Source: Octopus sinensis
Lineage: Eukaryota
DNA: 64,000 nt
Direction of reading: 5' to 3'
Assembly: GCF_006345805.1 (NCBI RefSeq)
Contig: NC_043000.1
Location: forward strand, 65,038,001-65,102,000
Shown: piece by piece, positions 22,281 through 28,749 of the stretch
Layout of the letters: every line of letters starts with the position of its first letter
How positions within the stretch are numbered: position 1 is the stretch's first letter
Notes under the pieces: generated by a model
Databases searched by the model: none
What the model was told of the DNA's origin: nothing
What the model saw: the letters and a program-made list of their open reading frames with translations, nothing else
Position numbers and translations under genes: made by a program

Positions 22281-22537
22281 AGTGTCAACGCGTTCCTACG
22301 TTGCAGTCTGTTGTGTTCGAGAGTTACACTTACGCAAAGGAGGAAGGTAATAACTTGAATAGAGTATACATACACATATATATATATATGTGTGTGTATA
22401 TATATGTATATATATATATATATGTATATATATATATATATATATTTATTATATATATATTATATATATATATATATATATATATATATATATATATATA
22501 TATATATATATATATATATATATATATATATATATAT

Positions 22538-22817
22538 ACATAAGGGGCATCAGCCATCTGAATGTGGCTAGGACAGGGCAGGGTGGTGGGGAGTGTTACT
22601 GATGCATTTAGCCCCAGGCGATCATCGACGTCACCAGGAGGGCTGACACCACCGAGATGGTGTCAGCCCTCCTGGTGACGTCGATGATCGCCTGGGGCTA
22701 AATGCATCGTAACACCCCCCACACCCTGCCCTGTCCCTAGCCACATTCAGATGGCTGATGCCCCTTATGTTATAGAGCAGTTACTGTTTATATCTCGTTT
22801 AGAGATTTATTATTGCT
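22538..22817 (+). mobile_element. Hairpin pLTR-like element, family P1 variant
   Basis: ~115-bp arms around ggctgacacc-accgagat-ggtgtcagcc; same 3' tail as 21018-21060; inside (TA)n. Confidence 0.75.
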
Positions 22818-22887
22818 ATAAATATATATATATATATATATATATATATATATATATATATATTATATATATATATATTATTTATAT

Positions 22888-23730
22888 TATATTGAGGGTA
22901 CTACTATTCGTAGATACCATCACGCTAAGAGGGACCAATGCGGTCAAAACTACTAAAAATAAACAAAATTTTACCGAATGCAAAACTTCAAAACACATCA
23001 TTTTAAAAAAGAATTCAGTTACATATCACATGTGATTTCGCATTTAATGCAGAATATGCATTTCATGTTCATCAGTGCAACAAACTCAAGAAATATAAGA
23101 GAAAAACATAACATTAGAAGCTCGATAGCCAACCGTAGAATTCGTCGTATTTACGGATTTTTTCTCTTACGAGGTTTTTCACGCTGACTACTGATAATTT
23201 CTTTTAAAGATTTTATCCTCAATTGTTAATTTATATTTTTCACCGGAATAGTTCAATACTGAATTTTTATTCCGACTAGACAATTTGTTACCGAAATGCA
23301 TTGCGAATAAGCCCGCCATTTTCATAGATATGTAAAGATAAACATTCGTACATGCTACGACGAATTCTACGGTTGGCTATCGAGCTTGTAATGTTATGCT
23401 TTTCTCTTATATTTCTTGAGTTTGTTGCACTGATGAACATGAAATGCATATTCTGCATTAAATGCGAAATTACATGTGATATGTAACTGAATTCTTTTTT
23501 AAAATGATGTTTTTTGAAGTTTTGCATTCGGTAAAATTTTGTTTATTTTTAGTAGTTTTGACCGCATTGGTCCCTCTTAGCGTGATGGTATCTACGAATA
23601 GTAGTACCCTCAAATATATAATAATGAATATTTTCAAAGAGGAAGAATTTACGAATTTTTTCTCTTACGAGGTTTTTCACGCTGACTACTGATAATTCTT
23701 TTAAAGATTTTATCCTCAATTGTTAATGTG
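22888..23730 (+). mobile_element. Retrozyme/Penelope-like element, family P2 (inverted arm plus >1 monomer of ~500 bp)
   Basis: 22890-23145 is the reverse complement of 23357-23614; 23149-23228 repeats directly at 23648-23726; hammerhead in both arms; (TA)n flanks. Confidence 0.8.
23424..23487 (+). ncRNA. Type-I hammerhead ribozyme, AUA triplet (mirror copy 23018-23081 minus)
   Basis: gttgca-CTGATGA-acat...atgc-GAAAT-tacatgtg-ATA-tgtaac; 6-bp stem I; stem III is the palindrome ATCACATGTGAT in the mirror copy. Confidence 0.8.
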
Positions 23731-23963
23731 TATATAATATATATATATATATATATATATATATATATATATATATATATAATATATATATGTATGTATA
23801 TATATATATAATATATATATATATATATAAATAAATATATATATATATATATATATATATTATATATATATATATAATATATATATATATATAATATATA
23901 TATATATATATATAATATATATATATATATATATGTATGTATATATATATATATGTATATATA

Positions 23964-25588: not shown

Positions 25589-25606
25589 ATATATATATAT
25601 ATATAT

Positions 25607-26483
25607 AAAATTAAATTTAGGTAAAAATTGATATTTATCCATTAGAACCAGTGGTCTAGCATATTAAAAGAAAGAATCCGAAGATTAAAATATTTATATG
25701 TACCAATTAAGGACTGAACACGAAAAGTGGACAGTCAACATGCTAGATATAGACGTCAAATCGCCAATCTCCACAAAAAGTCTATGTTCTCAGATCAAAC
25801 TCAACACAAAACCAAAGCAATAAACAAGTGAAAAATATACGAAATAAATATTTACCCATGTACTAAATTTAGTTTCGGCTGTTATTTTCCGCAAGGAAAA
25901 GTGCAGCCATCATCAGCATGGTCCCATATAAAATGAAATTTGCTGTACTAAATGCCAACACGATACCGAAATATCGCGTGCATGGAGTACGGATTCGTTC
26001 TTTTAATATGCTAGACCACTGGTTCTAATTGATAAATATCAATTTTTACCCTAAATTTAATTTTATATAAATATTTGTTCTCTAACCGATAAATTAACTG
26101 CTGCTAACTATTAGCTGCAGGCTAGTTTTCTCGGGTCTCATCGCGCCAAAATAAAGACATTTGAAATATATATTTCAAATGTAATAGGCCGTACTCCATG
26201 CACGCGATATTTCGGTATCGTGTTGGCATTTAGTACAGCAAATTACATTTTATATGGGACCATGCTGATGATGGCTGCACTTTTCCTTGCGGAAAATAAC
26301 AGCCGAAACTAAATTTAGTACATGGGTAAATATTTATTTCGTATATTTTTCACTTGTTTATTGCTTTGGTTTTGTGTTGAGTTTGATCTGAGAACATAGA
26401 CTTTTTGTGGAGAATGGCGATTTGACGTCTATATCTAGCATGTTGACTGTCCACTTTTCGTGTTCAGTCCTTAATTGGTACAT
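25607..26483 (+). mobile_element. Retrozyme-like element, family P4 (circularly permuted ~510-nt unit plus inverted arm)
   Basis: 25607-25990 is antisense to 25991-26483, but reads across the end-to-start junction of the sense unit; same family at 38929-40540. Confidence 0.8.
26260..26325 (+). ncRNA. Type-I hammerhead ribozyme, GUA triplet (mirror copy 25856-25921 minus)
   Basis: ccatg-CTGATGA-t-ggctg...cagcc-GAAAC-taaattta-GTA-catgg; palindromic ACTAAATTTAGT; all core bases present. Confidence 0.88.
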
Positions 26484-26621
26484 ATATATATATATTATAT
26501 ATATATATATATATATATATATGTATGTATGTATATATATATATATATATATATGATATATATATATATATATATATATATATATATATATATGTATATA
26601 TATATGTGTATATATATATAT

Positions 26622-27422
26622 AGCCAATCGGAGTAATCTAGAATAATCAATATCAAGCGGACAGAAAAACTAAACTCATAGTTATTTCGATTTTGAATGG
26701 ATGTACTTGGTGCTAACTTAACTGTATCTATTATTATTTTTATTAATATTAATAGTAATTTATATTGACTTTTATAGGTTTATAATTTTATGAACTGAAC
26801 TATGGTTTTTTTATTATTATTATTTTCAGGTATAGGGATGATTTTAATTAAAATAGTAGTGCGCATACATCTCCCTATGTGTTAGTTTTTAGAACTATTA
26901 GCTAAATATGTAAAATAACTGTGCTTATTAATATTAATATATACACTGATATATATTTTGTTTTATTTTGTTTTGTTTACCTTGCATTATTGTATCAATG
27001 AGTATTATATATCTGTAGCATTATGGAGTTTATGCACAAGTTTTTATATTTTATATTTTACATTTTTATATTTTTATATTTATATGTATATGGAAAAATA
27101 ATTTTTTTAACAATTATAACAAATTAAATTCTCTGAAGAGGCCGTGTGGCATCCTTGTTAATGCCTCATTTATACCCGCCTTTATGGCTTATAGGTTAAA
27201 ATAGGTATGACTGCTCTTACTGCCGAAACAGCTGTCAGATATGATATAATTACATATTATATTTTATATTTTATATTTCTATTTCCCTGTCTATTTATAT
27301 TTACTTTATATTTTGTATAATGCCTTTACTGATATGTAATGGTGTAATAAAGTATTGATTGGGTATCATCTGATAGTTGATGTTTTATTGATTTAAGTAT
27401 GTTTCTCCATTTTCTAATTTTT
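26622..27422 (+). mobile_element. Penelope-like 3' UTR/pLTR insert, family P5
   Basis: AT-rich insert between (TA)n tracts; hammerhead at 27130-27239; AATAAA at ~27346. Confidence 0.65.
27130..27239 (+). ncRNA. Type-I hammerhead ribozyme, GUC triplet, long loop II
   Basis: tct-CTGAAGA-ggccgt...actgcc-GAAAC-agct-GTC-aga; palindrome ACAGCTGT. Confidence 0.75.
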
Positions 27423-28749
27423 ATATATATATATATATATATATATATATATATATATATATATATATATATATATATATATATATATATATATAGAGAG
27501 AGAGAGAGAGAGAGAGAGAGAGAGAGAGGGGGTGAAGGGAAGAGTAAGAGAGAGAAAGAGGAGAAGACGGTCTCTACTCTTCTGCATTTGAGTGTTCAAA
27601 TCGCAGGCACAGTTGAAATGTTTAACTTAGTGAAACAATGTTAAACATTGCATTTATAAATTTATGCATTAAAAGATATATCGATAGAAAGTTAAATTAA
27701 AGTGAAATAATCTTAGTAAATAGCTGAGGATGTTACACTTTTACATTTTAAATGTTCTAGACCAAAAGCTGTACCCATGCTGGGACACCGCCATAACTAA
27801 TTTCTTTTTGTTATAAGATTTAAATATTTATGGGTATTATGAGAGCAGACAGATATAGAAAGGAAATTCAGATATGGTATTTCGTTTTTGGATTTGGTTT
27901 GCAAGATTCTTTATATGATTTCGTGTGTTGAAGCATATTCTTTTGCGTCTGGGGAGAGTAATTTTCTTTTTGTGCGTTATAATTTAACACACTCATCGAT
28001 AAAATTTCCACAGACAGGCAGACAGAATGACAGATAGACAGATAGATAGATAGATAGATAGATAGATAGATAGATAGATAGATAGATAGATAGATAGATA
28101 GATAGATAGATAGATAGATAGATAGATAGATAGATAGGTGAGTTTACAAATATATCAACAGATATGCAGATAGAGAGATATGTTAATAGATATACAAGTA
28201 GATATGTAGCTGAACTTAAGTGAAATTAAAAAAATGAAATTGGTAAATAACTTTGACTGAGGCTTGGTGGATGGACAGCGAAAAGCGCGCGCGCGTGTGT
28301 GTATTATAGTATATATAGTAGTTGATAAAGAGATAAATGAATTAGAAATAAATTACAACCCATACAACTCTATGACCCTACTATGCTCCATGCAATTCTC
28401 AGAAGATGTAGTCTATTCTTAGCTACAATAGCGACATGAATTTCTTCTATCTTCTTGCTCTGTTAAAATATTTAAGAAAAATTATATTACTGTGTACGAC
28501 TTGTTAAAATTCCATTTATTTATTTGTGCAGCTGAAGATGGAATCACATTCAAATTGATGTAATAATTCCATTGTTCAATTAAATGGACATACTGCATTA
28601 TTACTTGATACCCTGTTGCTTATTTTGATATATGTATATATATATATATAATATAAAATAATATAAAATTAATATGGACAGCAGGCCATATACATATATA
28701 TATATATATATATATATAATATAATATAATGTAAAATTAATATGGACAG

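Follow-up and report, generated by a model that had tools for sequence, protein, structure and literature searches.

Five unrelated repeats in one (TA)n tract of Octopus sinensis, probably separate insertions of non-coding Penelope-like elements

Architecture of the stack

A 64,000-nucleotide stretch of Octopus sinensis DNA (NCBI RefSeq assembly GCF_006345805.1, contig NC_043000.1, positions 65,038,001 to 65,102,000 of the forward strand; hereafter the window) was characterized. The window is AT-rich, microsatellite-dense, animal-type DNA without a single N, and carries at 22539-27421 a stack of five elements, P1 to P5, whose sole spacers are (TA)n. Sequence inspection and Tandem Repeats Finder delimited six tracts amounting to 717 bp (Table 1). 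P4 is oriented leftward and the other four elements rightward. An all-against-all BLAST at word size 7 detected no pairwise homology among P1-P5. A sequence-only reading of the window had described five different ribozyme-type elements separated by TA alone; the BLAST comparison and the tract mapping bore out both the difference between the elements and the nature of the spacers, and the element starts it had given (22538, 22888, 23964, 25607 and 26622) were correct to within 5 nucleotides (nt).

Table 1. Coordinates of the stack, its hammerhead cores and the related copies in the window
Feature	Position	Strand	Length, structure or basis
Left tract, compound (CA/TG/TA)n then (TA)n	22365-22538	none	174 bp
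P1	22539-22816	+	inverted-arm comparison, family alignment
(TA)n tract P1/P2	22817-22892	none	76 bp, Tandem Repeats Finder
P2	22893-23730	+	inverted arms and tandem monomer
P2 type I hammerhead core	23430-23481 (mirror 23075-23024)	+ (mirror -)	palindromic stem III; mismatch at stem II base
(TA)n tract P2/P3	23731-23964	none	234 bp, Tandem Repeats Finder
P3	23965-25588	+	inverted arms, public contigs
P3 type I hammerhead core	25405-25474 (mirror 24066-23998)	+ (mirror -)	strict descriptor, contigs, fold
(TA)9 tract P3/P4	25589-25606	none	18 bp, sequence
P4	25607-26481	-	head-to-head pair, family copy at 38930-40540
P4 type I hammerhead core	26265-26320 (mirror 25916-25861)	+ (mirror -)	palindromic stem III; strict descriptor, fold
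(TA)n tract P4/P5	26482-26622	none	141 bp, Tandem Repeats Finder
P5	26623-27421	+	single arm
P5 hammerhead core	27133-27236	+	84-nt stem II insert, palindromic stem III; relaxed descriptor only
Right tract (TA)37, then (GA)n	27422-27495	none	74 bp, Tandem Repeats Finder
P1-family copy	20849-21060	+	TA both sides, same two end points as P1
P4-family copy	38930-40540	+	inverted tandem dimers (488-bp spacing), TA both sides, same two end points
Longer P1-family copy	51099-51506	-	TA both sides, U3-variant core 51348-51317(-)

P1-P4 each consist of two truncated copies arranged head-to-head, with both 3' ends pointing outward into TA. One arm stops at an internal site, A, and the other continues to a second site, B, the excess forming a one-sided tail whose length (A to B) is 46 nt in P1, 118 nt in P2, 81 nt in P3 and 93 nt in P4. 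P1 is a short, 5'-truncated fold-back in which the arm at 22539-22651 faces that at 22658-22770, followed by the 3' tail. The inverted arm of P2 (22893-23149) faces 23356-23612, and its main arm is a 498-bp monomer with ∼84 nt of terminal redundancy, or 1.2 units. The P3 arms (23965-24173 and 25299-25507) enclose a 1.1-kb low-complexity interior. The arms of P4 meet near 25990 with a 3-nt overlap, the tail lying on the minus arm; the plus arm corresponds to nearly one ∼0.5-kb monomer, and the family shows 488-bp tandem spacing elsewhere. No tandem structure was seen in this window for P1, P3 or P5. P5 is a single arm without inversion, carries AATAAA at 27346, and is likely to be a 5'-truncated 3' end. 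The head-to-head inverted structure is found in four of the five block elements, all but P5, and in all three family copies outside the block.

Arm-to-arm substitutions were few (1/111 in P1, 4/257 in P2, 5/208 in P3 and 2/293 in P4), with zero to three indel events; all four arm pairs are young. The two P3 arms share three alleles (25445, 25469 and 25501) that are missing from 98-100% of the contig depth in run X1, one of the public runs described below, so both arms derive from a single source or were later homogenised.

With a strict type I hammerhead descriptor, seven cores were recovered in the window. Each arm of P2, P3 and P4 holds one, and a weak seventh core lies outside the block at 6009-5907; 20 dinucleotide-shuffled windows together yielded one core. 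A relaxed descriptor, defined after the P5 motif had been spotted by eye, recovered 10 cores as compared with a mean of 0.3 per shuffle (30 shuffles), the additions being P5 (27133-27236, at the threshold score), 56688-56638 and 51348-51317. All four block motifs have a palindromic or near-palindromic stem III, and the family allele at 25469 (100% of X1 depth) renders that of P3 perfectly palindromic. P1 contained no core in either scan. In the longer copy of its family the U3-variant core lies upstream of the portion that P1 retains, indicating that P1 is a truncated copy. The ribozyme label that the sequence-only reading had attached to all five elements therefore holds for four, P2-P5 (P5 by the relaxed descriptor only), but not for P1. 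Minimal hammerheads of Penelope-like elements (PLEs) are described as type I, with a palindromic stem III, and of the dimer type (PMC4209133). The P2-P5 motifs match this pattern, and P1 does so only through its 51-kb family copy. A hammerhead in P1's own tail was considered and rejected, as the CUGAUG-like stretch there is not conserved in the two other family copies. Matches to Rfam microRNA families, all below gathering scores, were likewise discarded as hairpin and microsatellite artefacts.

Contact with TA and related repeats in the window

The three P1- and P4-family copies outside the block reuse sites A and B, while the apex varies from copy to copy, and no other P element adjoins any of them. 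All six of their ends contact TA, as compared with none of 30 ends of 15 control repeats from the window (ends taken as uncurated BLAST limits) and a background of 1.1%. The hammerhead cores in the P4-family copy are degraded. Between its arms, 457 aligned bases contain 14 substitutions as against 31 indel events, an excess that suggests a locally unpolished consensus, and its right flank runs into a piece (40709-40844) of a SINE-like (short interspersed nuclear element-like) family.

Public contigs from 4 of 24 runs, none of which is recorded as RNA, were compared over 830 of the block's 5,131 bases, comprising the 3' end of P3 and the left arm of P4; 2,494, 1,666, 965 and 171 contig pieces aligned in the four runs. 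Among the matches listed, 15 contigs of run X1 and 6 of X5 had P4-family loose ends at site A of P4 (25690) that continued as (TA)n; two contigs of X15 had loose ends there in a short TA run, and X2 had no TA loose end at this position. One X5 contig carried an opposite-strand joint with different breakpoints. Summed X1 depth, which is not a copy number, reached ∼970,000 over the P3 hammerhead, where the longest single contigs had depths of 12-61, and fell to 1,350-2,950 on the 5' side of P3. This profile marks high-copy, 3'-biased families. Pattern scans of metagenomes for P3 and for P4 returned no match in either case.

The sequence-only reading had proposed repeated targeting of (TA)n, with TA left on both sides of each insertion. 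The targeting is supported by the contrast between copy ends and control ends, by the lone outside copies and by the P4-family contig ends in three of the four runs. The flanking TA is directly seen at all ten element ends, and targets thus persist. Clustering as such was rejected as evidence because the window had been picked for this cluster. The figures left uncounted are P ∼5e-5 for 5 of 9 inserts falling in one of ∼40 TA loci under uniform choice, and P 0.001-0.23 in length-weighted simulations assuming a gain of 0-400 bp and hand-merged tract lengths.

The sites themselves were also inspected. At the six end points with known read-through, the exact overlap with TA, scored by eye, was 3, 1, 0, 2, 5 and 6 nt; these add up to 17, as against 5.6 on average under the null (P = 0.003), a result driven by the two sites of P4. 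Four of the six coincide with or adjoin a TA run of at least 5 nt (background 5.2%, P = 1e-4, by a criterion set post hoc). As a lead only, TA-like motifs at sites A and B hint at microhomology priming.

By a perfect-seed measure the block contains 611 bp of TA, as compared with a median of 34 bp and a maximum of 142 bp in 51 tracts outside it; the longest degenerate TA array outside the block is 242 bp (Tandem Repeats Finder). This excess is compatible with a net gain of TA, and in a window chosen for its cluster a long founder tract or later slippage would look alike. The SINE-like family (4854-5381, 11070-11535, 17863-18690 and 52026-52260) is abundant and contains an internal (CA)/(TA) microsatellite; it may seed TA targets.

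Among the other hairpins of the window, two of three have TA at both ends. These two (57422-57701, a near-perfect palindrome at 96%, and 60410-61289) lack a hammerhead core by both descriptors and may be fold-back DNA elements or else truncated pairs of PLE type. The third (56614-56876, core 56688-56638 on the minus strand) is a sixth hammerhead-bearing hairpin, with arms 78% alike; it lies at the edge of a (TG)n rather than a TA tract and touches TA at neither end.

Putative coding remnants were noted elsewhere. On the plus strand, 43316-44110 holds a 45-codon remnant of an open reading frame (ORF) followed by a degenerate hammerhead-like stretch at ∼43910-43985, between (TG)n and (AAT)n, and is likely a 5'-truncated PLE 3' end; the remnant resembles a GIY-YIG C-terminus in its motif, with no database match. 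A second ORF remnant of similar appearance, at 10170-10733 (minus strand), likewise looks like a GIY-YIG C-terminus but had no Pfam or homologue match; near 10217 it is followed by a hammerhead-like CUGAAGA stretch in decay. At 30220-30618 (minus strand), weak matches to the superfamily-1 helicase C-terminus, below Pfam cut-offs, possibly represent a Helitron helicase remnant. The window also contains local direct duplications at 1332-1932/3495-4093 (98.8%), 11359-12003/12135-12777 (99.7%) and 59726-59918/60050-60242 (100%), which are either recent tandem duplications or assembly echoes.

Proposed origin and alternatives

We consider it probable that the five unrelated repeats are separate insertions of non-coding PLE retroelements, with the PLE reverse transcriptase (RT) and GIY-YIG endonuclease supplied from elsewhere. 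The elements behave like non-autonomous PLE inserts, and no named clade is assigned to them. A PLE RT/GIY-YIG protein encoded elsewhere would cut both strands within (TA)n, and each DNA end would then prime reverse transcription on the element RNA from a fixed internal position, A or B, the two lying 46-118 nt apart. Joining of the two 5'-truncated cDNAs head-to-head would leave both 3' ends facing outward into TA, while P5 would represent a one-sided event. Each insertion would split the tract with TA remaining on either side, leaving the locus open to the next family. The putative hammerheads would serve to process multimers of the transcript, probably acting as dimers. Of the four internal junctions, three read 3' end-(TA)n-3' end; because a single template-jumping cDNA would not yield 3'-to-3' junctions, a separate cut was likely required for each unit. 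For PLE palindromes, an earlier proposal invokes self-priming by fold-back on antisense templates (PMC3846280), which would equally account for the alleles shared by the P3 arms.

Several observations weigh against separate PLE insertions. Neither the six-frame translations of P2-P5 nor the window ORFs of at least 100 amino acids contained an autonomous PLE ORF (telomerase-like RT plus GIY-YIG), and no RT or GIY-YIG ORF is linked to any of the five elements. P3 holds a 68-residue read-through that matched no Pfam family and none of 10 candidates; its single match among 1.84 billion proteins, to a dynein-light-intermediate-chain protein, is repeat-driven and not relevant. Rfam reported no hammerhead: nothing matched at the gathering score, and the 119 matches at E ≤ 10 did not include one, an absence likely due to the long inserts in stem II. 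Minimum free energy folds contain the three-way junction for P3 and P4 only, that of P2 being absent, and of the four block motifs P4 alone outdoes shuffles in folding (z -2.65). The tails exceed the published 30-40 bp. Target-site duplications are unreadable inside (TA)n, a limit also met in PMC8557442. The arm divergences are too alike to order the insertions, leaving sequential arrival undated. Finally, no read or contig seen bridges two elements, and the P3-P4 junction is uncovered within the four runs and 830 bases compared, a gap that carries no weight by itself.

This last point would suit an assembly artefact, in which the repeats are genuine PLE-type sequences and their adjacency is partly the product of wrong joining across high-copy repeats and long TA tracts. 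The 31 indel events between the arms of the 38.9-40.5 kb copy, as a noisy consensus would give, and the several near-identical local duplications in the window point the same way. However, the window is free of N, the arms within the block are clean, each tract is interrupted in a different way, and the end points agree with those of independent copies, so that we regard a misjoin as unlikely. Transfer of the block, or much of it, as a composite unit, or its synthesis in one multi-template reverse transcription event, would fit the like youth of the four arm pairs (0.7-2.4% substitutions) and the report that PLEs can carry unrelated DNA between pseudo-long terminal repeats (pLTRs; PMC3846280). 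Recurrence of the whole block as one unit was a check raised by the sequence-only reading, and the solitary P1- and P4-family copies elsewhere in the window speak against it. Summed contig depth also varies several hundred-fold along P3, the outer ends of the block belong to different families, and three junctions run 3'-to-3'; a common journey of the five elements is thus highly improbable.

Long inverted arms flanked by TA are also what fold-back DNA transposons inserting at TA would leave, whether Tc1/mariner- or Micron-like or resembling miniature inverted-repeat transposable elements (MITEs), with the hammerheads as passengers or chance motifs. The two TA-flanked hairpins without a core, at 57422-57701 and 60410-61289, could be read in this way. 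Yet P1-P5 lack symmetric terminal inverted repeats of constant structure: their ends are asymmetric, with a fixed tail on one side, and the apex differs among copies of one family. Tandem monomers make up P2 and P4, an inverted repeat is missing from P5, and a hammerhead core is present in each of four unrelated families. We therefore hold an origin from DNA transposons to be very improbable.

Separate PLE insertion could be extended into a model of tract growth. Families would pair the target TA with the two TA sites of their RNA, and each insertion would add TA, by staggered duplication or telomerase-like slippage. Tracts already occupied would lengthen and draw in more families, leading to runaway multi-family stacks and a PLE-driven microsatellite load. 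We offer this extension tentatively and think it rather unlikely as it stands.

Relation to known elements and significance

In placing the elements, the sequence-only reading found support on targeting but overlooked their Penelope-like nature, for which a (TA)n preference is in print (PMC8557442). Published PLE insertions show an inverted 5'-truncated copy, a tail, partial tandems and a bias towards microsatellites (PMC8557442; PMC3846280), and (TA)n insertion is described for Naiads and for almost all hammerhead-bearing families of the Hydra clade (PMC8557442). Endonuclease-positive (EN+) PLEs, namely Penelope/Poseidon, Neptune, Nematis and Hydra (Craig et al., 2021, PMC8557442; Arkhipova et al., 2013, PMC3846280), resemble the block elements in 5' truncation, partial tandems, inverted 5' copy and one-sided tail. 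They are also alike in the terminal-repeat hammerhead and the (TA)n bias of Hydra, a bias shared by Naiad, although without canonical hammerheads (PMC8557442). Unlike them, the block elements have no RT/endonuclease ORF, their tails measure 46-118 rather than 30-40 nt, and five families occupy one tract.

Metazoan non-LTR (long terminal repeat) retrozymes are non-coding tandem monomers with a type I hammerhead (Cervera and de la Pena, 2020, PMC7229834) and are held by Li et al. (2026, bioRxiv 10.64898/2026.07.22.740005) to have arisen from PLEs as non-autonomous forms. The non-coding tandem monomers of P2 (498 bp, 1.2 units) and of the P4 family (488 bp, with degraded cores in the 39-kb copy) may be of this kind. 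In contrast to retrozymes, the monomers here exceed the ∼300 bp average, occur mostly as inverted truncated pairs and carry long stem II inserts.

The purified Poseidon protein PAc cuts and extends both strands of AT-rich targets in vitro (Frangieh et al., 2024, PMC11167929). Its reverse transcription starts at two internal sites whose spacing equals the tail, and the starts are not homologous to the cut DNA (PMC11167929). The two fixed end points with tail-sized spacing and the AT-rich target are matched in the octopus elements, for which two-strand cutting is inferred; unlike the PAc starts, four of the six mapped end points here lie at or beside a TA run of the template. In one shrimp, long (AT)n is associated with Penelope elements that expanded recently (PMC7878876), and annotation of Octopus vulgaris lists 31 recently active PLE families (PMC13282606). 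A search of titles and abstract openings, with most subscription papers outside its reach, found no publication on multi-family PLE stacks in one TA tract.

We conclude that the stack is real and largely explained, and that it is striking but mostly ordinary, as the (TA)n preference of PLEs is already published. It provides a tidy natural case of five PLE-type families in one (TA)n target. It also calls for caution, as such hairpins are missed by Rfam and can be mistaken in annotation for MITEs or microRNA precursors. Sites A and B, fixed and marked by TA-like motifs, would lend themselves directly to the in vitro PLE assay already available, in which priming was reported to be non-homologous. 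If each insertion does bring a net gain of TA, this would explain mechanistically why PLE activity goes with long (AT)n, so far a correlation only (PMC7878876).

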